From positions 1 through 43,886 of the forward strand of contig JBDRVU010000001.1 of assembly GCA_039802085.1 (NCBI GenBank): 43,886 nucleotides of DNA. Direction: 5' to 3'. Within the stretch, counting starts at the first letter, position 1. Each line of letters begins with the position of its first letter. Below are positions 647 through 27,329 of the stretch, piece by piece. A program made the position numbers and the translations under genes. This DNA is from a candidate division WOR-3 bacterium. GTDB lineage: Bacteria > Hydrothermota > Tepidihabitantia > Tepidihabitantales > JBDRVQ01. The notes beneath the pieces were generated by a model, which had not been told where the DNA came from, did not search any database, and was given only the letters and a program-made list of their open reading frames with translations.

Positions 647-992
647 TAAATCAAAAAACCGAATACTTCGCCCCCATCCCTTTTATTCTCAAAATTGGAC
701 TCTGAATTAGAAATGGGATTGGACATTTTCTTAGGCTTTTTTTTAGACAAGAAATTGGTGATAAAATTAGACCTTTTTTCCCGAGAGAAATTGGGGGAAA
801 AATTAGACCTTTAACTTGGGGGAAAACTACCCATTAAAGTAGAGAAGGGAACTAAGGAAAAAGGTGGGAGGGGAGGTAATAGAAGAGGCGGTGGTAGGGC
901 TCACCTTAAGTTCAATCCAAAGATAAGTAAGTTATTGAAAATAAAAAACTTAAAAATAAATACCTCTTTTTAATAGGCGACTTTTATGTCGC
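647..992 (-). repeat. Copy 1 of a ~345-bp intergenic element with a phased 12-nt C(T/C)AAT array (core on the minus strand), a purine/pyrimidine-skewed block and a terminal hairpin
   Basis: ATT(A/G)G occurs at 694, 706, 718, 730(cttag), 742(tttag), 754, 766, 790, 802 and 814(acttg), all exactly 12 nt apart. The reverse complement aligns by eye over its whole length with 26339-26686. Hairpin: GCGAC(977-981)-TTTTAT-GTCGC(988-992). Confidence 0.8.
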
Positions 993-3663: not shown

Positions 3664-3745
3664 GCGAGGATGGCGGAATTGGCAGACGCACTGGATTTAG
3701 GATCCAGTGAGGCAACTCGTGGGGGTTCAAGTCCCCCTCCTCGCA
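3664..3745 (+). tRNA. tRNA-Leu, anticodon TAG (reads CUA/CUN), class II with long variable arm
   Basis: Acceptor GCGAGGA/TCCTCGC, anticodon stem CTGGA/TCCAG with loop TTTAGGA (anticodon 3698-3700), long variable arm TGAGGCAACTCGTG, T arm GGGGG-TTCAAGT-CCCCC, discriminator A. No encoded CCA. Confidence 0.93.
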
Positions 3746-3764
3746 TAATTTACTAATCTTCTTT

Positions 3765-4994
3765 ATGGAATTGACGATTAATCAAAGAAAAGAATACCTA
3801 AAGGAAATTTCCGTAGACATTGAGTCCGGCGAATTAGATAAAAAGATTGATGAAGTATTGAAGGAATATAAGGATAAAATTTTCTTGCAGGGTTTTCGGA
3901 GAGGTAAAGTTCCCCTAAAAATTATTTTAAGAAAATTAGGGAAGGAATTGGAGGCGATTGCCGCTCAAGAGGTAATTGACGAAACCCTTAGAAAAATTGT
4001 GCAAGAAAAGAACCTGCGTCTGGTGCAGGAAGCAAGGATTACGGACTTTGAAATTAAACCCGATAAATCCCTTCACTTTACCGCCCTCTTAGAGGTCTTC
4101 CCGGAATTTGACCTGAAAGAATATAAAGGGATTCCTCTTATTCAACCGGAAATTACCGGATTCGATGAGGAATTTGAAAGAAGAGTCCGCTCCCTTCAAG
4201 AGAAATGCGCCATCTACCACAGCACGGATAAACCTGCGGAAAATGGTAATATCCTATTTTTAGATTACAAGACCTTTTGGGGGGAAGAAGAATTACAAAA
4301 TATCTCCGCTCATCGCTTCCGCTTGGGTGATGAGCATAACTTTCCTGAACTGAACGAAGGACTCCTGGGTGTCAAACGCGGGGAGAAGAAAGAAATTCTG
4401 GTCAAAATACCCGAAACCTTCCCTAACGAAAAAATTGCTGGGAAAGAGGTTCGTTTTGAAATTTTTGTCCGAGATATAAAAGAAGAGGAACTACCGGAGT
4501 TGAATGAAGAATTCGCCCAAAGTTTAGGTTATAATAGCCTAACTCAGTTGGGAGACGAGATAAAACGTTCCATACTTGATGAATGGGAAGAGATCCGCCT
4601 TTCTCTTTTGAAAAAGGAAATAGAAAAATACCTCTTAAACGATTACGATTTTGAACCCCCCGAATCCTTAGTGGAAAGAGAAATTAGCCTTCTTCTTGTA
4701 GAAAATAAACTCCCGGACGATGAAGAAACAAGGAAAAAGATATACCCAACAGCAAAAAATCGGATAAAATTATGGCTGATCCTCTCACGCATCGCGGAAA
4801 AAGAAAATTTAATGCCCACCAAGGAGGATACCGAAGAGTTTCTCAATCAACTTTCCCTTTCCCAAGAAGAAAAAGAGAAATTGGCGGAGAGCCAATTTAT
4901 TAAAGAAAAAATTTTGGTAGAAAAGGTGATGAATTTTCTCATCAAAGAAGCCCAAATAGGAGGAGAAGATGTATTACATACCAATCGTGATTGA
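3765..4994 (+). CDS. tig: Trigger factor
   Basis: N-terminal ribosome-binding signature GFRRGKVP, ~410 aa acidic protein, conserved tig-clpP-clpX order. Confidence 0.9.
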
Positions 4995-14488: not shown

Positions 14489-15451
14489 TCATTCCGCGGA
14501 TAATAAACGGAGGAGATTTTTCATATCCTCGGGAAGGGGTGCAGTGAACTCTACATATTCCTTGGTCTTGGGATGGATAAAACCCAACTTGGCAGAGTGG
14601 AGGGCTTGCCGATCAATTAGGGAGAGCATCTTTTTGGCAAAAGAATATTCCTCCTTTGATTTTATCAATTTGGTAAAGGCACGTCCGTATTCTCTATCCC
14701 CAACTACCGGATGACCAAAATGGGACATATGAACCCGAATCTGGTGAGTTCTCCCGGTTAATAGTTTAAGCCGGGCATAGGTAGCGATTCCGTATCTTTT
14801 TATCACGGAAAATTCCGTGATTGCCTTCTTAGAGGCAAATGGGGTAACCGCCATCTTTTTCCGGTCTAAGGAATCCCGGCCGATAGGTGCTTCAACTATC
14901 CCTTTCTCCAAAGGTAAATTACCCCAGAGAATTGCCAGATATTCTCGATTTATCCGCCGATTTTCTAATTCTTTTCCTAAAAAGGAAAGGGCGGTATCGG
15001 TCTTAGCAAAAACCAAAAGACCGGTTGTATCTTTATCAAGCCGATGGATTACCCCGGGTCGGTATTTTTCTTGACCCACTGCGAGATTTTGACAATGAAA
15101 TAAAAGGGCGTTGACCAAAGTTTTTGATTTATGCCCCCTTGCCGGATGGACCACTATCCCTTTCGGCTTATCAATTACAATCACATCCTCATCTTCATAG
15201 ATGATATTTAAGGGAATATTCTCGGGTATAATATCCAATTCCTTTTCTGGCTCAAACCGGGCATAAATCTTATCTCCGGCCTTTACCCGATAAGAAGGTT
15301 TTACCGTTTTCTCATTAACTAACACCTTTCCCTCCTTTATCAACTTATTCACCTTATTCCGGGAAAGTCCAATCCCGGAAACAATAAGATAATGGTCCAA
15401 TCTTGTTCCGCGCATCTTCTCCGCCGCAATCCGCAAAAATTCCTTCTCCAT
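14489..15451 (-). CDS. rluD: RluA-family 23S rRNA pseudouridine synthase (RluD-like) with S4 domain
   Basis: S4-like N-terminus (RLDHYLI...SRNKVNKLIKEGKVLVN), catalytic motif HRLDKDTTGLL, GRTHQIRVH. Confidence 0.9.
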   Translation of the reverse strand: MEKEFLRIAAEKMRGTRLDHYLIVSGIGLSRNKVNKLIKEGKVLVNEKTVKPSYRVKAGDKIYARFEPEKELDIIPENIPLNIIYEDEDVIVIDKPKGIVVHPARGHKSKTLVNALLFHCQNLAVGQEKYRPGVIHRLDKDTTGLLVFAKTDTALSFLGKELENRRINREYLAILWGNLPLEKGIVEAPIGRDSLDRKKMAVTPFASKKAITEFSVIKRYGIATYARLKLLTGRTHQIRVHMSHFGHPVVGDREYGRAFTKLIKSKEEYSFAKKMLSLIDRQALHSAKLGFIHPKTKEYVEFTAPLPEDMKNLLRLLSAE

Positions 15452-15459
15452 ATTTCATT

Positions 15460-15487
15460 AAATTACCGAAAGAAAGCCAAAAGTCAA
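15460..15487 (-). promoter_or_regulatory. Putative promoter of rluD-topA
   Basis: On the minus strand: TTGACT (15487-15482), 16 nt, TAATTT (15465-15460). ATG 15451 lies 8 nt after the -10, with no SD. Confidence 0.45.
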
Positions 15488-15518
15488 CTTAAAAACTGTC
15501 TGATTTCTAATCCGAAGG

Positions 15519-15546
15519 TTGACATTTTCTAAGATTACTTTATAAT
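15519..15546 (+). promoter_or_regulatory. Perfect-consensus sigma70-type promoter firing into the 12-nt array
   Basis: TTGACA (15519-15524), 16-nt spacer, TATAAT (15541-15546). No ORF follows within about 370 nt. Confidence 0.65.
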
Positions 15547-15568
15547 ATAATAAATTGAATAATTAGTT

Positions 15569-15599
15569 AAACCCATCCCTTCCTTAAAGGGAGGGGTTT
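15569..15599 (+). other. Strong stem-loop (possible attenuator or terminator) about 15 nt downstream of the predicted TSS
   Basis: AAACCCATCCC / loop TTCCTTAAA / GGGAGGGGTTT gives 10 bp with one A.G mismatch, followed by TATCTTTAT. The left arm CCATCCC can alternatively pair with GGGATGG at 15629-15635. Confidence 0.45.
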
Positions 15600-15642
15600 A
15601 TCTTTATAAAAAGGGGTGAAGCATACAGGGGATGGTATCGGG

Positions 15643-15870
15643 GGTCTAAATAAAGGTTTAATAGAAGGCGTAATAGAAAATCTAATTAAGGGAATGATAG
15701 AAACTCTAAGAAAAGGGTTAATAAAAATAGTAATCGGAGCAATAATTAGAATGGTAATTGTGAGTCTAATTTGATGCGTAATAATAAATCTAATCGGGAG
15801 AATAACCAAAGGTCTAATTGAGAGACTAATTGGAGAAACAATTAAGGGCTTAATCAGGAGAGGCATTGAT
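15643..15870 (+). repeat. Nineteen contiguous, exactly phased 12-nt units with a TAAT core (copy 3 of the array family)
   Basis: Units ggtCTAAAtaaa, ggtTTAATagaa, ggcGTAATagaa, aatCTAATtaag ... ggcTTAATcagg. TAAT occupies unit positions 5-8 in 13 of 19 units, and 5 more are one mismatch away. No indel breaks the phase over 228 nt. Confidence 0.9.
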
Positions 15871-15892
15871 AAACACGGTTGTATTAAATTGA

Positions 15893-15921
15893 TTGACTTC
15901 TCCCTTAAGGTAGGTTATAAT
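15893..15921 (+). promoter_or_regulatory. Promoter of the 929-aa gene (leaderless geometry)
   Basis: TTGACT (15893-15898), 17 nt, TATAAT (15916-15921). ATG 15927 lies 5 nt after the -10. Confidence 0.6.
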
Positions 15922-15926
15922 GCCAG

Positions 15927-18716
15927 ATGCTTTTTATCCTTTTCTTCTTTTCTCTTTCTTCTCTGGATTCCTCCGAGATTGGTCTCATTGAAAAATGCCT
16001 CAATTCCTATCTCATCACCCAAAAAGAGTTATCCTTTGAAAAAAAGTGGGCAATTGATTCTACCTTTATCTTAAAAAAAGTGGCTAAATCCCTTGACCAA
16101 CCCCTTTGGCTTCCCTTTTACTTAGATTCCACCATCCACCGCTCAGATAGTTTAATTGACCTCCTGCCAAAATCACAGGAGATTAGCCTCTCTTCTCTAC
16201 CCGAGATAATTAAGTGCCTCATCAACATTATCCATAATTACCGTAAGGAATTGGTACCCCTCTATCGACAAGAGAAAGGACAAGTTTTATCTCCTGAGGA
16301 ATTGGACTACTTATTATATCTCTCACCCTATCTCTTCTCTGATGAGGAGGATACAACGGACGATTACCTAAAAGGCTTCCTCCATAAAGAGTTTAACCAA
16401 TCAATAAAATTTGATTCCCTAAAATTGCCTTCAGATAGTTTCTTTGTTGTGGTAAAGAAGTTAGATTACGAAGAGATTATCTCCCAATCTATTTCCCATC
16501 TGATGCGCTTTTCCCATTACCTAAAAGGATTAAAAGTCCCCAAGGAGAAGATTGATTGTCCCGGGGTCAAAGGAAAAGTCCATTATTATGAAGAAAATGA
16601 ATTCGGTAAGGTAGTGATTGGTTCAGAAGAAAATAATACTTATTATGAGGAGTTTTCTATCATTATTGACCTGGGCGGAAATGATATCTATCACTCTCCC
16701 AATGGCGCAATTGGCTTTTTCTCCCACCCCTTTTCCGCGATTATTGATTTTTCCGGTAACGACTTCTACCAAACAAAAAGACCTTTTGCCTTTGGGGGCA
16801 GTATCTTTGGCACAAGTATCCTCCTTGACTACCAAGGGAATGATGTCTATCGTGCCTCCGAGTATTCCTTAGGGAGTACCCTTTTTGGTTTAGGGATTCT
16901 CCTTGATTACGAAGGGGACGATTTTTATGAAGGAAAGACCTTCACCCAGGGGGCGGGTTTTTATGGTTTAGGTTTCCTTTTTGATTTTGGGGGTAATGAT
17001 ACCTACCGGGCTTATAACTTTGCCCAAGGCTTTGGTTCTACCTTTGGTTATGGTGCCCTGCTCGACCAATCAGGAAATGACATTTACTATGGGGGTGGCA
17101 AATTCTACCACGAACCACTTCTACCCAAAGACTTTCGCAGTTTTGCCCAGGGCTTTGCGATGGGCTTCCGACCGGATGCCGGCGGAGGCATTGGACTTCT
17201 TTATGATAAGAAAGGTAATGACTTTTATAACGGTGATGTCTTCTCTCAGGGAACGAGTTACTGGTATTCCTTAGGAATGCTCTTTGATAACGAAGGAAAC
17301 GACCAATATCTGGCGACCGAATACGCCCAAGGGGCCGGGATTCATTTAGCTTCTGGCATCCTGGTTGACCGTAATGGCAATGATAACTACTACTCCCGAC
17401 TCGGACCAGCCCAAGGCGAAGGACACGATTTTTCGGTTGGCATCTTAATTGATAGAGATGGTGATGACCACTATTATACCTCCGGTGGTCAGGGAATTGG
17501 TTTGACCAATTCCTTTGGTTTATTTTTAGATGCCAAAGGCGATGATACCTATTTAACCCGGGAGAAGGAGTTTGGTCAGGGCTGGGCAAATCCCTCCCGG
17601 GGATTTGGTGGGATAGGTATCTTCTTAGACCTGGGAGGCGAGGATTTATATCCCAAAGACTTAAAACCAGAAGAAATAACTTATTTCTTCAAAGGCTTTT
17701 ATGGTGCAGGAATTGATCAAAAGGGAAAAAAGGAAGAAAAGGAGGAAGAAGAAGAGCCAGTTGGCGATTTAGCAAACAAAAAAATTGAAGAGGTATTTAA
17801 GGGGGCAAGCGAATGGGAGGTTGGTAGTGCCAAAAAGAGGGTGAGGGAATATCGAAAGGAATTGATAAAAAGAGATACCCTCTCCCTCAAATATATCTTT
17901 TCTGAAAAGATTGCCACGAGGAATAGTTTAGAGTTAAGGGCGATTGAAGAATTTTGCGAATCCCTGCCGGAAAAGGTAATACCTTATTTATTAAAATACC
18001 TCTGGGATGAGAGGAAGGAAGCCCGGGCGAATGTCATCTATCTCTTAGGGAAATTGAAGGTGAAGTTCGCAGTTGATTCCTTAATTTCTGCTCTTAAAGG
18101 CCGGCGGTTGCCGAACGGTAAGATAATCCACAACCGACCCCGATGGATTATCTCCGCCCTCGGGGATATCTTTAAGATTGATTCTGTACCACCCAAAGAG
18201 GATTCCCTTCTGCGGGAAAAAGTTTTATCAGTAATCTTAAAATACCTAAACGATAAATACGAACCAACCCGCATTACCGCCACGGTTGCCTTAGGGAAGA
18301 TAAAAGAAAAAAAGACTCTCCCCTATCTCATAAAAACACTCTCGGACCCAATTTTCACCTGCCGCCAGGCCGCAGAGAATGCCATTAACGATTTTGGGAA
18401 GGGGGCAATTACCGAACTCCTCTTTTTCTTAAAACCATCCGCTAACCATCTTCTTCTCCGTAGTCTTATCTCTTGTCTGGGAAGACAAATTACAACCTTA
18501 AAGGAAGAAGAGGAAAACGAGAAGAAAAAGATTAGAAAAGCCCTCATCCCCTTTCTCTCTTTTCCGAAATCAGAGATTCGCCTGGCTACCATCTCCGCTT
18601 TATCTAACTTTAAGGACGAATACACAAAAAATATCTTAAAGAACCAATTGGCAGAAGAGACCGACCCGATTGTCTTAGATAAATTAAAAGTTATCCTTTA
18701 TGGAATTAATCCGTAA
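15927..18716 (+). CDS. Large uncharacterised protein: hydrophobic N-terminus, twelve ~26-aa 'hhD-x-x-G-(N/D)-D-x-Y' repeats, acidic/Lys linker, C-terminal HEAT/PBS-lyase-like repeats
   Basis: Repeats DLGGNDIY, DFSGNDFY, DYQGNDVY, DYEGDDFY, DFGGNDTY, DQSGNDIY, DKKGNDFY, DNEGNDQY, DRNGNDNY, DRDGDDHY, DAKGDDTY, DLGGEDLY (nt ~16660-17655). KEEKEEEEE linker. The C-terminus has HEAT-like helices (ARANVIYLLGKLK..AVDSLISAL; TRITATVALGKIKEKKTLPYLIKTLSD; IRLATISALSNFKD). Confidence 0.8.
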   Translation: MLFILFFFSLSSLDSSEIGLIEKCLNSYLITQKELSFEKKWAIDSTFILKKVAKSLDQPLWLPFYLDSTIHRSDSLIDLLPKSQEISLSSLPEIIKCLINIIHNYRKELVPLYRQEKGQVLSPEELDYLLYLSPYLFSDEEDTTDDYLKGFLHKEFNQSIKFDSLKLPSDSFFVVVKKLDYEEIISQSISHLMRFSHYLKGLKVPKEKIDCPGVKGKVHYYEENEFGKVVIGSEENNTYYEEFSIIIDLGGNDIYHSPNGAIGFFSHPFSAIIDFSGNDFYQTKRPFAFGGSIFGTSILLDYQGNDVYRASEYSLGSTLFGLGILLDYEGDDFYEGKTFTQGAGFYGLGFLFDFGGNDTYRAYNFAQGFGSTFGYGALLDQSGNDIYYGGGKFYHEPLLPKDFRSFAQGFAMGFRPDAGGGIGLLYDKKGNDFYNGDVFSQGTSYWYSLGMLFDNEGNDQYLATEYAQGAGIHLASGILVDRNGNDNYYSRLGPAQGEGHDFSVGILIDRDGDDHYYTSGGQGIGLTNSFGLFLDAKGDDTYLTREKEFGQGWANPSRGFGGIGIFLDLGGEDLYPKDLKPEEITYFFKGFYGAGIDQKGKKEEKEEEEEPVGDLANKKIEEVFKGASEWEVGSAKKRVREYRKELIKRDTLSLKYIFSEKIATRNSLELRAIEEFCESLPEKVIPYLLKYLWDERKEARANVIYLLGKLKVKFAVDSLISALKGRRLPNGKIIHNRPRWIISALGDIFKIDSVPPKEDSLLREKVLSVILKYLNDKYEPTRITATVALGKIKEKKTLPYLIKTLSDPIFTCRQAAENAINDFGKGAITELLFFLKPSANHLLLRSLISCLGRQITTLKEEEENEKKKIRKALIPFLSFPKSEIRLATISALSNFKDEYTKNILKNQLAEETDPIVLDKLKVILYGINP

Positions 18717-19712: not shown

Positions 19713-20837
19713 TTGATGGTCATCGCCCTTAGGGAACTAAAAGGCAATTGCCTTCATGATTTTCCCTATAAGAAAGGGAAGAGAAAATGTCCCCATTCCA
19801 TTTTGCTCTCCGCCACCGAATCCGGCTGTTGTCTCTACCGTTGTCCAATCTGTTATGCCCGGGCTTATCCCTGGTCAAAAGAGAACGAAATAGTAATTTA
19901 TAAAAACCTCGTTGAAAAATTGAGAGAGGAAATCAAAAACGCCTACCGCCTGTTTCCAATTTATCTCAGTCAAGTAACCGACCCCTTACAGCCGATAAAG
20001 GAGATAAAAAATCTCACCAAAGGTATTATCTCCCTCCTGATGGAATACAATTTAAGTTTTGGGATTGTGACCAAGAGTGCGGATGGTCCTTTATCTCTCT
20101 TAAAGGAATTACCAGTTCTTCAAGAATATCCTTATTGGTTTCTCACTATCACCATTGAGGCGCCACCAGAAAAACAGATAATTACCAGCCCCTTTGCCAG
20201 TAAAATTCTGGACCGGTTTCGTACCATCTATTATTTTAATAAAATAAAAATCCCCGCTGTTGTTCGGATTGACCCAACTATTTTAGGAATTATGGAGAAG
20301 AGAGATATTATCTACCTAATAGATAGGGCCCAAGAAGCCGGTTCACCTCATATTATCGGCTCCACTGGGTATTTCAATAAAACCTCAATTCTCCGGGTGG
20401 CGGAAAGGATAAAAAAATCTAAATTCTCATCCCGATTAAAAACCTTCTTCTCTTATTATCAGTTTGACCCAGAAAGGATTGCTGACTATCCCGAAAAGAA
20501 GCGTTTCACGGTTCCCTTTTCTTTAAGGGTGCGTTTCCATACCTGGTTGAAGAAAGAAGTAGAAAAAAGGGGGATGACCTATGCGGTCTGCCAGGAATTG
20601 CCCAAGGGATATGATTCAAAAAATATCCCTTCCTGTGAAGGGGCGAAAAATATCTTTGTTCACATTAAGAGTTTACAAGGTAAATTCCAACCCATCCCCT
20701 GCCACGGTGATTGCCTCCGATTTTGCCCTAACAGAGAAAACCCACCCTGCGGTTATCCCAACTTTGCTGATGAATACCCGTTCAAATACAAATCCCTTTT
20801 TTTGCCACCCGTCCAAAAACTTTTTAATATAAATTGA
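19713..20837 (+). CDS. Radical SAM protein of the SplB/'DNA repair photolyase'-like (COG1533-type) class with a Cys-rich C-terminus
   Basis: CLYRCPICYARAY is a CxxxCxxC motif followed by YAR, typical of that class. The C-terminal region is PSCEG...PCHGDCLRFCPNRENPPCG. The start may be ATG 19716 instead of TTG 19713. Confidence 0.7.
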   Translation: MMVIALRELKGNCLHDFPYKKGKRKCPHSILLSATESGCCLYRCPICYARAYPWSKENEIVIYKNLVEKLREEIKNAYRLFPIYLSQVTDPLQPIKEIKNLTKGIISLLMEYNLSFGIVTKSADGPLSLLKELPVLQEYPYWFLTITIEAPPEKQIITSPFASKILDRFRTIYYFNKIKIPAVVRIDPTILGIMEKRDIIYLIDRAQEAGSPHIIGSTGYFNKTSILRVAERIKKSKFSSRLKTFFSYYQFDPERIADYPEKKRFTVPFSLRVRFHTWLKKEVEKRGMTYAVCQELPKGYDSKNIPSCEGAKNIFVHIKSLQGKFQPIPCHGDCLRFCPNRENPPCGYPNFADEYPFKYKSLFLPPVQKLFNIN

Positions 20838-25824: not shown

Positions 25825-26166
25825 TTACCTCCGCATACATTGGCAGAAACTATGGTAGTTGGCACAGACACCCCCAAGGATTGAGAAAAGACCCCAGAAA
25901 AGAGGACGGGTAAAAATATGGAAAAGGGTCGGCTTAGAATAGGGTAAAAGATATATCCCTAAGGTAACGAGAAAACAGCCAACAACGATAACGGTGTGAC
26001 CGAAGATAGCAAGTGCTTGTCTTCCCCCGCGCCAACCTAAATAGACCAGTGAAATACCGATTGCTAAGGGAACTATTCCGATAAAATCACTACAAACCAG
26101 TCCGTAAACTCCGAAGATAAAAACGGCGCCTCCTAAAATAAAAGTAATTAAACTCTTTGGTCTCAT
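25825..26166 (-). CDS. Small (113-aa) four-TM membrane protein of unknown function with a Cys-rich tail (CANYHSFCQC)
   Basis: The start at 26166 (MRPKSLITF) is preceded by GGAGGAAAAGTT. The track start at 26229 lacks an SD. Four hydrophobic helices. Confidence 0.6.
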   Translation of the reverse strand: MRPKSLITFILGGAVFIFGVYGLVCSDFIGIVPLAIGISLVYLGWRGGRQALAIFGHTVIVVGCFLVTLGIYLLPYSKPTLFHIFTRPLFWGLFSILGGVCANYHSFCQCMRR

Positions 26167-26197
26167 AACTTTTCCTCCGATTGCGAATCTTTTAGAA

Positions 26198-26225
26198 ATG
26201 ATACCCAATTTCTCAACCCTGTCAA
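26198..26225 (-). promoter_or_regulatory. Putative promoter of the small membrane protein gene (normal leader with SD)
   Basis: On the minus strand: TTGACA (26225-26220), 16 nt, TATCAT (26203-26198). About 31 nt separate the -10 from the ATG and include GGAGG. Confidence 0.5.
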
Positions 26226-26338
26226 ACAACCACCTAAGATGAATAGATACCTAAAGGTCTTCTTAAGTTATTAATCTTAGTAGCTGATTTAGTTCATCGT
26301 CTTTAATCCCTGTTTCAAAAACTCATATTCTCATGTTA

Positions 26339-26686
26339 GGAGACTTTTATGTCGCCTATCAAAAAAGGGTATTTCTTTCTAAGTTTTTTATCTTCAATAA
26401 TTTACTTGTTTTTAGGATAAATTTAGAGTGAGCCCTACCACCACCTCCCCTACGACCCCCTTTCCCACCTCTTATCCCGGTTCCCTTCCCTACTTTCCCG
26501 ACCAATTCTTCCCCTAATTAAAGGTCTAATCTTCTCTCTAATTTTTCTTCTCAAAAAAGGTTTAATCTCTTTCCTAATCTATTCTCTAAGAAATGGCCTA
26601 AGAAAAGGTCTCATTCCTTGGCTAATCCCTATTCTAATTTTAGGAATAGAGGGATGGGTAGTTAGGCATTCGGTTTTTTAATTTGA
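26339..26686 (+). repeat. Copy 2 of the ~345-bp element (hairpin, conserved A/T block, C-rich block, phased 12-nt CTAAT array, GGGATGGG box, T-run)
   Basis: Units from 26511: cccCTAATtaaa, ggtCTAATcttc, tctCTAATtttt, cttCTCAAaaaa, ggtTTAATctct, ttcCTAATctat, tctCTAAGaaat, ggcCTAAGaaaa, ggtCTCATtcct, tggCTAATccct, attCTAATttta. The whole segment aligns by eye with the reverse complement of 647-992. Confidence 0.85.
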
Positions 26687-26765: not shown

Positions 26766-27329
26766 ATGTTTATCACCGGTGGCGAATTAAAAGGGAAGAG
26801 GTTAAAATATCCAAAAGGGAAAATTCGTCCCACCGAAAGAATGGTAAAGTTAGCCATCTTCTCCGTTCTCGGAGAAAAGATAAAAGAGAGCAAGGTATTA
26901 GACCTTTTCTCCGGCCCGGGAGCGATGGGCATTGAGGCTTTATCCCGAGAGGCAAAAGAGGTCTATTTTGTGGAAAGTGATAAAAGAAATTTCTCTTACC
27001 TCTTAGAAAATATTAAAGGGTTAAAATCCTGCTACCCGATTAGAAAGGATGCCTTCAAGACCATTCCTACCCTAAAAGGAGAAAAATTTGACTTAATCTT
27101 CTTAGACCCTCCCTATCTCAAAGGGATGGTGGGAAAGATAATTGAAGAGATTGTTCGGTTTGACCTCCTAAAAGAAGAAGGGATAATCGTCGCCGAACAT
27201 CATAAAAAAGAAGAGATATTTTTACCCAGAGAGTTAAAAATAATAAAGCACAAGGTCTACGGTGAAACCAAAATCACCTTTTTGCAAAGGAGCGAAGATG
27301 AAAAGAGTAGTCTACCCGGGAAGTTTTGA
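26766..27329 (+). CDS. rsmD: 16S rRNA (guanine966-N2)-methyltransferase RsmD
   Basis: ITGGELKGKRL..P....RPT..MVK.AIFS, SAM motif LDLFSGPGAMGIEALS, FLDPPY. The start could be 26763 or 26766. The track start at 26715 runs through the promoter. Confidence 0.85.
   Translation: MFITGGELKGKRLKYPKGKIRPTERMVKLAIFSVLGEKIKESKVLDLFSGPGAMGIEALSREAKEVYFVESDKRNFSYLLENIKGLKSCYPIRKDAFKTIPTLKGEKFDLIFLDPPYLKGMVGKIIEEIVRFDLLKEEGIIVAEHHKKEEIFLPRELKIIKHKVYGETKITFLQRSEDEKSSLPGKF

Follow-up and report, generated by a model that had tools for sequence, protein, structure and literature searches.

Strictly phased 12-nt TAAT arrays form an intergenic repeat-element family conserved at the nucleotide level in a subclade of candidate division WOR-3

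Positions 1 to 43,886 of a chromosomal contig (GenBank JBDRVU010000001.1, forward strand; hereafter the window) from a metagenome-assembled genome (MAG) of a candidate division WOR-3 bacterium carry an array of 19 back-to-back 12-nt units with a recurrent TAAT motif, located between rluD and a gene encoding a HEAT-repeat protein of 929 amino acids (aa). This target array is one copy of a multi-copy, intergenic repeat-element family confined to one WOR-3 subclade, in whose members a conserved leader precedes 12-19 units of 12 nt in strict phase. The conserved object is a nucleotide motif, (A/G)GTCTAATH with the core (G)TCTAAT(T/C/A), repeated at an exact spacing of 12 nt, and not the amino acids that it would encode. 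The family, its motif, the constraint at the nucleotide level, the indel-free phasing and the restriction to one lineage are demonstrated in this analysis. We propose, at a probability of roughly 40%, that the element is transcribed and functions as RNA, in the form of a multivalent array of YUAAU sites, and is possibly translated too. Overall, the feature is real, statistically solid and specific to its lineage, and the function of the motif is a prediction from the sequence.

Architecture of the array element

The target array lies in the 475-nt divergent gap between rluD (14489-15451, minus strand) and the HEAT-repeat gene (15927-18716, plus strand), where it is preceded by a promoter-like sequence, a hairpin and a leader, and followed by a second promoter (Table 1). 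TAAT is exact in 13 of the 19 units, one base off in five and two bases off in the last, and the seventh column is A in every unit (19/19). The phasing and the counts of exact and one-off units agree with an earlier examination of the letters made without database searches (hereafter the sequence-only reading). The periodicity check that it had proposed gave a period-12 power of z = 10.6, and the 13 in-phase TAAT motifs far exceed the counts in 5000 dinucleotide shuffles, which had 1.35 on average and never more than 4. The plus strand of the target array is rich in purines (66%) and poor in C (8%). Tandem Repeats Finder (TRF) detected only weak super-periods of 24 and 36 nt in the arrays, the 36-nt one in the two window paralogues described below (locA and locB).

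The promoter-like sequence P1 reads into the element and was the top match of the scanned region, in keeping with the sequence-only reading, which had called it the best in the window; by our own base-frequency estimate, about 0.06 perfect consensus matches are expected per window. The second promoter, P2, stands 5 nt before the ATG of the HEAT-repeat gene, in the leaderless arrangement noted earlier. Judged from sequence only, P1 and P2 both possess sigma-70-type -35 and -10 hexamers spaced 16-18 nt apart. Their -35 boxes share the pentamer TTGAC, which forms the left (15519-15523) and right (15893-15897) copies of a 5-bp direct repeat.

The hairpin between P1 and the array, which had also been recognized from the letters, folds at -18.5 kcal/mol with z = -2.45 (15569-15599). 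The terminator scan reported 10 pairs plus TTATCTTTAT at 15569-15607, and the structure combines a G+C-rich stem and a T-tract with pairing that is kept in a variant (see below). By its form it may be an intrinsic terminator, an attenuator or a 5' stem-loop. In the relative L006 the stem has not been kept, its 5' arm being missing. An alternative pairing of the CCATCCC arm with GGGATGG had been pointed out as well; both halves are indeed there (GGGATGG at 15629-15635, the complement at 15573-15579), but, by our reasoning, an antiterminator role is impossible because the pairing lies downstream of the terminator, and one half of it is missing from L006. The window has 12 copies of GGGATGG, four of which (674-680, 15573-15579, 15629-15635 and 26651-26657) fall within the ~1 kb covered by its three elements. 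In elements with a type-1 leader the heptamer is placed 3' of the array; in those with a type-2 leader it precedes the array and has an inverted counterpart within the hairpin.

Table 1. Coordinates of the array element, its paralogues and associated features in the window
Feature	Position	Strand	Basis or remark
Promoter-like P1, TTGACA-16-TATAAT	15519..15546 (-35 15519-15524, -10 15541-15546)	+	consensus match 12/12
Hairpin and T-rich tract TTTATCTTTAT	15569..15607; stem 15569-15599, alternative register 15575-15597	+	terminator scan, fold
Type-2 leader GGAGGGGTTTATCTTTATAAAAAGGGGT....CATACAGGGGATGGTATC	15589..15642	+	28-nt and 18-nt blocks identical to L006
52-codon open reading frame (ORF), x-L-I-x frame	15616..15774	+	GTG start, TGA stop 15772-15774
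Array, 19 phased 12-nt units	15643..15870	+	family consensus (A/G)GTCTAATH plus 3 variable bases
Promoter P2, TTGACT-17-TATAAT, 5 nt before the ATG of the 929-aa HEAT-repeat gene	15893..15929 (promoter 15893-15921)	+	11/12, leaderless geometry
99-aa ORF, x-I-x-P read-out	15567..15866	-	gene call in NCBI record; judged spurious
locA, type-1 paralogue: conserved upstream block, C-rich leader, 12-unit array, ATTCGGTTTTTT end	648..990	-	locB alignment
locB, type-1 paralogue, 31 nt upstream of rsmD	26342..26684	+	leader alignable to L009, L113 and L126

A multi-copy family restricted to one subclade

The target is not an orphan: three family copies lie within the 44-kb window, and homologues occur in related WOR-3 genomes. 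The runs of similar units that the sequence-only reading had listed at 690-845 (inverted) and 26487-26642 proved to be real and lie within two 343-nt paralogues, locA and locB. These align without gaps over 343 nt at 72% identity (96 substitutions, 0 indels), and their 12-unit arrays share the same register. A difference at 28% of 343 positions without any indel shows selection on geometry. In a second strain, locB is identical and its flanks differ by 8 single-nucleotide polymorphisms in 6.6 kb. The extended motif AAAGGTYTAAT occurs seven times in the window against 0.22 expected, and six of the seven lie inside arrays.

Relatives were found via the loci around homologues of the 929-aa HEAT-repeat protein. 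The target sequence is identical in a second independent assembly (L001). In L006 (73% protein identity), the element is inverted and carries a 17-unit array; its leader contains 28-nt and 18-nt blocks identical to those in 15589-15640, and the flanking spacer is unalignable. In L009 (65%), a 17-unit array with exact CTAAT in 14 units lies upstream of the HEAT-repeat gene. A pattern scan of GTDB genomes for CTAAT-N7 repeated four times returned, among the matches listed, mostly unrelated tandem repeats and at least two useful WOR-3 loci (L113 and L126), both from the MAG that also yielded L008. In total, the DNA-level set comprises seven arrays with 112 units (the three in the window, L006, L009, L113 and L126), and the protein cluster P0122 is an eighth family member known as protein only. 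The type-1 leader is common to locA, locB, L009, L113 and L126, and the type-2 leader to the target and L006. The orientation of the motif relative to the conserved leader is identical in all seven DNA arrays.

The closest relative, L003 (86% identity), shares the topA-rluD/HEAT synteny; however, its spacer is only 113 nt long and holds no array. The 374-nt block that it lacks is bounded in the window by the two TTGAC copies, and P1, described earlier as an orphan promoter, takes its -35 box from one of them. The HEAT loci of L004, L007 and L008 hold no array or a doubtful remnant only; the apparent array upstream in L008 aligns weakly, and the one downstream is a false positive. More distant WOR-3 HEAT loci yielded no arrays (0 in 10 loci, ~140 kb in total, several of them near-duplicates), which indicates that the family is restricted to one subclade. 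A search of genome contigs with the 929-aa protein found no related loci, and scans of metagenomes returned no match to the type-2 leader and only chance or unrelated matches to the type-1 leader.

The geometry TATAAT-N5-ATG of the HEAT-repeat gene is kept in L004, L006, L008 and L009 and is near-identical in L003. The corresponding sites are at 15916-15929 in the window, ~4990-5003 in L003, ~2392-2408 in L004, ~4991-5003 in L006, ~3853-3867 in L008 and ~4990-5003 in L009. The gene downstream of the L113 array shows TAGAAT-N5-ATG.

A contig from another sample (L002) matches the window perfectly over 1.7 kb except for seven differences within 15574-15617. In its hairpin, C15577-G15595 is replaced by T-A and A15575-T15597 by G-T, the T-tract is longer, and GTG 15616 becomes GGG. 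The hairpin pairing survives these changes, in support of the structure being real, and the loss of GTG speaks against conservation of the start codon. Elsewhere the L002 sample diverges by only ~0.1%, compared with these seven substitutions in 44 nt of leader and hairpin. Such clustering suggests a second allele, a paralogue or copy of the leader, or a gene-conversion tract.

Several further observations concern the boundaries and neighbours of the elements. In L007, the rluD/HEAT spacer (3680-4971) contains restriction-modification fragments (a ThaI-like ORF and two N6_N4 methyltransferase pieces), by which the spacer seems to be a recurrent insertion site. The promoter-side boundary of the type-1 paralogues is marked by the palindrome GGCGAC-TTTTAT-GTCGCC (972-992 and 26339-26356, with one mismatch in locB); its TTTTAT loop has the same plus-strand orientation at both sites, although locA and locB are mutually inverted. 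L113, L126 and L009 carry other palindromes at the equivalent place. A GTGAGCCCTACCACC block in both type-1 leaders (827-904, minus strand; 26428-26517, plus strand) opens short GTG ORFs (MSPTTASS..., 25 aa; MSPTTTSP..., 29 aa), which cross the C-rich stretch and stop just before the array, one frame off the x-L-I-x frame.

The window itself carries housekeeping genes, among them feoB, tig, clpPX, tolB, lepB, tmk, ctpA, topA, rluD, a polysaccharide cluster, rsmD, coaD, obg and dprA. It also includes the ftsZ/ftsA end of the cell-division (dcw) gene cluster, with ftsZ as the sole tubulin-family gene. Pfam scans of the genes flanking the three window arrays returned housekeeping families only. 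Two ORFs have no Pfam match: one of 134 aa (25825-26229, minus strand), divergent from locB, and one of 374 aa (19713-20837, plus strand) in the HEAT/polysaccharide cluster, whose orthologues in L006 and L009 show weak radical-SAM matches.

Selection on the nucleotide motif

Column statistics were calculated from the 112 units of the seven DNA arrays, with the codons of the window's genes as the background for genome usage. The most informative columns are 6 (1.48 bits) and 7 (1.50 bits). Column 6, which is the synonymous third base of "codon 2" in the x-L-I-x frame, is A in 90 of 97 NTN codons (93%), compared to 21.6% in the background (P = 3e-51). CTA makes up 58 of the 73 Leu codons against 6.9% genome-wide (P = 2e-53), and GTA 14 of the 15 Val codons. 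As CTA, TTA, GTA and ATA are read by different tRNAs, no single tRNA explains the bias. A tRNA-Leu with anticodon TAG is encoded at 3664-3745; it reads CUA, the rare Leu codon that dominates the arrays. By contrast, at column 9, likewise a synonymous third base (that of "Ile"), the ATT/ATC/ATA counts of 49/25/8 show no departure from genome usage (P = 0.06). The units are thus old enough for a free synonymous site to equilibrate, whereas the adjacent column 6 is held by selection.

The remaining columns give a similar picture. "Ile" is replaced by K, N, R or T in 18 cases and by V, M or F in 10, and "Leu" by P in seven; column 7, a first codon base, is conserved more than column 8, a second base. 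Substitutions lack 3-periodicity, with 31/34/33 per 74 sites between the target and L006 and 8/17/21 per 48 sites between locA and locB. The signature of a protein gene, namely third-position variation, free synonymous sites and conservative replacements, is absent. These codon-level statistics support a nucleic-acid motif as the conserved object, as the sequence-only reading had proposed. G at column 9, which would create AUG, occurs in only 6 of 112 units. The type-2 leader is nearly identical across genomes in which the adjacent protein is 73% identical.

No conserved RNA structure was detected, as the folds of the arrays gave z-scores of about zero (-0.1 to -0.7), and the sequences are too few for covariation. 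Complementarity between arrays and downstream genes shows no general pattern; only locB/rsmD lies slightly above shuffles. There, 26 nt of locB (26595-26620) are 85% complementary to rsmD 26891-26916, 270 nt downstream on the same strand, in a stretch that encodes the SAM-binding motif KVLDLFSG; the value is just above 60 shuffles, and the other six arrays offer nothing comparable. Rfam 15 at the gathering threshold gave no window match except tRNA. At E <= 10, the sub-threshold matches (12.6-21.2 bits, compared to gathering thresholds of 44-102) all overlap the region of promoter and hairpin (15462-15685), and none falls on the array proper. With no match in Rfam, Pfam or NCBIfam, the earlier impression that no described family has this layout held up.

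Coding potential of the arrays

The 12-nt period equals four codons, and the x-L-I-x frame is the only open one. It spells GLIE GVIE NLIK and so on in the target, its predicted peptides including GLIEGVIENLIK, and opens again after the TGA at 15772 as far as 16074. The sequence-only reading was right that this frame is broken by the TGA, but wrong that it has no start, since GTG at 15616 opens a 52-aa ORF; its statement that no gene explains the array was accordingly too strong, all the more with intact ORFs in relatives. The identical TGA in the L001 assembly excludes a sequencing or assembly error. Global recoding of TGA (code 4 or 25) is also excluded, as TGA ends 14 of the 37 window genes and table-11 ORFs are dense and full length. 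No hairpin that would point to selenocysteine was seen 3' of the TGA on reading the sequence; selA is present on a relative's contig. The annotated 99-aa minus-strand ORF is rejected as a gene: it shrinks to 53 aa in L006, is absent from L009 and has no homologues, in line with its earlier description as a read-out of the repeat.

A possible, if doubtful, explanation is a family of small-protein genes made of x-(L/V/I)-I-x tetrapeptide repeats, which would form a single long helix and perhaps be membrane-active or self-associating. The target would then be truncated to 52 aa by the TGA or be a pseudogene, and the TAAT bias would be a by-product, for example of unit ancestry or of selection for a UAA "hidden stop" in the +1 frame. 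Besides the four-codon period, the single open frame and the absence of in-frame TAA and TAG throughout the arrays, intact ORFs with a start are found in L006 (93 aa, with the Shine-Dalgarno-like CAGGGA 4 nt before its ATG), L009 (91 aa) and the P0122 cluster (81 aa). The latter comprises four variants from several sister WOR-3 MAGs, labelled hypothetical protein by NCBI, and begins with MEHTGDGI, compared to xKHTGDGI in the target; the sister-MAG genes include ABIK99_03165 and ABIK84_00295 (MEO0098721.1 and MEO0100825.1). A TATAAA-N5-GTG arrangement lies in the type-2 leader (15605-15618) and may parallel the leaderless HEAT promoter. AlphaFold predicts the 52-aa peptide as a single long helix (pLDDT 87.6). 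Moreover, cyanobacterial (G-L-I-x)n repeats (L095, L034 and L123) lie within long ORFs as young, near-identical GGGCTAATTNNN units; there, the same read-out of four residues is a genuine protein repeat.

The contrast between the frozen column 6 and the equilibrated column 9, the non-conservative replacements and the lack of a codon-position pattern all speak against a protein as the selected product. Intact ORFs are confined to L006, L009 and P0122; the frame is interrupted by TGA in three of the seven arrays (target, L113 and L126), and locA and locB, although indel-free, lack any ATG, GTG or TTG start in it. In the target the motif persists past the TGA, with five exact and two one-off units among units 12-19. 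The start triplet of type-2 elements varies (GTG in the target, ATG in the P0122 cluster, GTA in L006 and GGG in L002), and from copy to copy the C-termini and the amino-acid character are entirely different. The maximum of the hydrophobic moment (1.75) falls at 90 degrees, with only 0.32 at the alpha-helical 100 degrees; this 4.0-residue period does not fit an amphipathic alpha-helix. The x-L-I-x protein has no match among 5.8 billion clustered proteins, and a homologue search with the minus-strand frame also found nothing. A HMMER scan of 1.84 billion protein representatives retrieved a single true relative of the x-L-I-x protein, the P0122 protein from sister WOR-3 MAGs, and Pfam and NCBIfam gave no match to it.

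In-frame TAA and TAG at columns 10-12 are depleted (0 seen compared to 6.7 expected from column-preserving shuffles), and TGA is not. This depletion could reflect translation. We give it little weight and discount it as proof of coding, because the two spacer flavours (AAAGGT-like and pyrimidine runs) make the T10-A11 dinucleotide rare for any triplet, a single TAT being seen; the frame is largely open because the motif grammar seldom creates stops. The sequence-only reading had named intact ORFs in relatives as a finding that would undermine it. They exist and count against a purely non-coding array, but the motif is conserved at the nucleotide level regardless. The x-L-I-x frame may be translated in some copies, as in a dual-function RNA, with translation secondary and not the conserved property.

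A transcribed platform and its alternatives

P1 reading into the element, the constant orientation of motif and leader, and the unstructured purine-rich array together favour a transcribed platform. P1 would transcribe the plus strand, and transcription would pass the hairpin, acting as an attenuator or a 5' stabiliser, and then the conserved leader. The product would be an unstructured, purine-rich RNA displaying ~19 evenly spaced YUAAU sites, a putative multivalent platform for a factor that reads single-stranded RNA. Candidate readers are an RNA-binding protein, a UAA-specific ribonuclease and the 30S subunit. In its sequence, the consensus unit AAAGGUCUAAUY looks like a Shine-Dalgarno sequence with AUY 4 nt later, the same Shine-Dalgarno-to-start spacing as in genes of this genome. 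This resemblance and the avoidance of G at the AUG-making position would suit the 30S subunit as the reader, with the other two candidates no less likely. That the element is transcribed, that it works as RNA and what kind of factor binds it are inferred from these sequence features.

Several points weigh against this reading. Neither a strong sigma-70 consensus promoter nor a clear terminator accompanies the type-1 copies, the element is missing at this site in the closest relative, and the intact ORFs and the stop-codon depletion described above leave room for coding. Nor is strict 12-nt phasing usual for known sponge RNAs; DNA iterons or coding repeats show it more typically, 12 being divisible by 3.

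Phasing of this kind is what a DNA iteron array would predict, in which a protein binds GTCTAAT head-to-tail every 12 bp and wraps or coats the DNA as do TubR, ParR and phi29 p6, the complex serving as a roadblock or upstream regulator of the promoter right after the array. The partition centromeres R1 parC (bound by ParR) and tubC (bound by TubR) likewise consist of many short direct repeats at a fixed spacing near one helical turn, with a short core and free spacers, next to or overlapping a promoter. The tubC of the Clostridium botulinum c-st prophage, with 5-bp TTGAC iterons spaced by 6 bp (PMC6009700), is a precedent for iterons of 5 bp at a fixed spacing. The WOR-3 arrays have a 5-bp core with free spacers, and the 19 units of the target stand at exactly 12 bp. 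In the target, L113 and probably locB, 22-37 nt separate the end of the array from the -35 box of a downstream promoter of the leaderless type, and by this distance promoter control at the DNA level stays conceivable; it would also suit the type-1 copies without obvious promoters or terminators of their own. However, the known centromeres reside on plasmids and phages, directly upstream of the operon for their own binding protein and motor, whereas the WOR-3 copies are chromosomal, dispersed and upstream of unrelated housekeeping genes that differ at each locus. No adjacent partition operon, ribbon-helix-helix (RHH) or winged helix-turn-helix (wHTH) binder, or ParR-, TubR-, ParM-, ParA- or TubZ-type gene was found beside any copy. 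The period is 12 bp, compared to 11 bp in the centromeres, and the array is preceded by an inward-reading promoter. The motif orientation is fixed with respect to the leader and, in the target, to that perfect promoter; the target shows a strong purine asymmetry between strands; the inverted L006 element lies ~270 nt from the HEAT promoter; and the single motif is at background level outside arrays. Altogether, we consider a DNA iteron array unlikely.

We regard it as highly improbable that the element is functionless today, either as a neutral minisatellite or as what remains of a mobile sequence that inserted and is now decaying. The element is missing in L003, the 374-nt block is flanked by TTGAC direct repeats, and position and orientation vary among relatives, all as expected of such a sequence. 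As the apparent target-site duplication coincides with the -35 boxes of P1 and P2, a deletion in L003 is at least as likely as an insertion here. A core that is conserved while the spacers are saturated, 343 nt without indels at 72% identity, a leader near-identical between genomes with 73%-identical proteins, and the invariance of locB between strains do not fit neutral decay, and they make the minisatellite proposed by the sequence-only reading unlikely as well. A mobile element or MITE (miniature inverted-repeat transposable element) was rejected, as neither terminal inverted repeats nor a transposase was seen.

Within the RNA-level reading, the arrays might represent an undescribed class of chromosomal riboregulators in WOR-3, although we hold this extension to be improbable. 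They would be abundant, possibly dual-function RNAs with phased YUAAU sites, each following an SD-like (Shine-Dalgarno-like) AAAGG, that cooperatively load or titrate a machine reading single strands at a 12-nt register. The 30S subunit with S1, a UAA/UAAU-specific endoribonuclease and a filament-forming RNA-binding protein are candidates for that machine. In a bolder variant, the 7-nt variable segments between the constant cores may act as mini-guides, for which one weak complementarity was seen.

Comparison with other repeat systems

The array may be likened to the sponge RNAs CsrB and RsmZ (binding CsrA) and CrcZ (Hfq/Crc), which are promoter-driven non-coding RNAs with many copies of a single-stranded motif that alone is conserved. 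The known sponges differ in their irregular spacing and in GGA or A-rich motifs, usually in hairpin loops; the WOR-3 arrays have an exact 12-nt spacing, YUAAU sites, no conserved structure and no Rfam match.

TIGR arrays consist of two alternating 8-12-nt repeats (edge and loop) and 9-nt spacers in a 36-nt unit, carry UG...CCA box motifs and adjoin a gene for a Nop-domain Tas protein (PMC12045711). They resemble the WOR-3 arrays in their very short conserved repeats and short variable spacers and, if the latter arrays are transcribed as proposed, in their single precursor transcript, and the 36-nt super-period of locA and locB matches their unit. A TIGR-Tas system was rejected, since the WOR-3 unit is 12 nt long with a single 5-8-nt core and 4-7 variable bases, box C/D motifs are absent, and Pfam found no Nop-domain gene flanking the three window arrays. 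In ToxI-like antitoxins, a tandem repeat of ~34-45 nt is present in 2-6 near-identical copies, immediately 5' of the gene for a ToxN/AbiQ-type toxin. The WOR-3 units are 12 nt long and diverged, and the downstream genes are the HEAT-repeat gene and rsmD, so a type III toxin-antitoxin system was set aside. More generally, the arrays do not agree with CRISPR, ToxI-type antitoxin repeats or Csr-type sponges, the mismatch lying in the size of the unit, the identity of the repeats, the motif or the partner gene. A Fur box, a Rho rut site, a DnaA-trio, a diversity-generating retroelement (DGR) template and a G-quadruplex were dropped because motif, strand or neighbouring genes do not suit them.

Small repeat-bearing or hydrophobic ORFs, such as the cyanobacterial glycine-zipper-like (GLIx)n, type I toxins and Leu/Ile/Val-rich leader peptides, recall the x-L-I-x read-out in their 50-90 aa and multi-copy intergenic placement. 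Like the arrays, the enterobacterial leu leader uses the rare Leu codon CUA. Unlike such ORFs, the WOR-3 copies show frozen synonymous sites, premature TGA codons and missing starts; they lack an antitoxin-like partner as well as any connection with branched-chain amino-acid genes.

Significance

To our knowledge, no regulatory RNAs or DNA-binding arrays are known from WOR-3, an uncultured phylum. The family described here is defined by a simple rule, GTCTAATH every 12 nt with a conserved leader and no indels. It offers an unusually clean sign of nucleotide selection inside an apparent ORF, with one synonymous site frozen and the next at equilibrium. The current annotation is wrong under either a nucleic-acid or a protein reading, with a gene on the wrong strand in the window, a "hypothetical protein" in the sister MAGs and nothing at L009. 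If the arrays are small-protein genes, they would present a case in which codon identity itself is under strong selection. If they are RNA or DNA platforms, they would imply a new binder and a new regulatory layer, and under the riboregulator reading, if true, strict helical or oligomeric phasing would be seen for the first time in a sponge or scaffold RNA.

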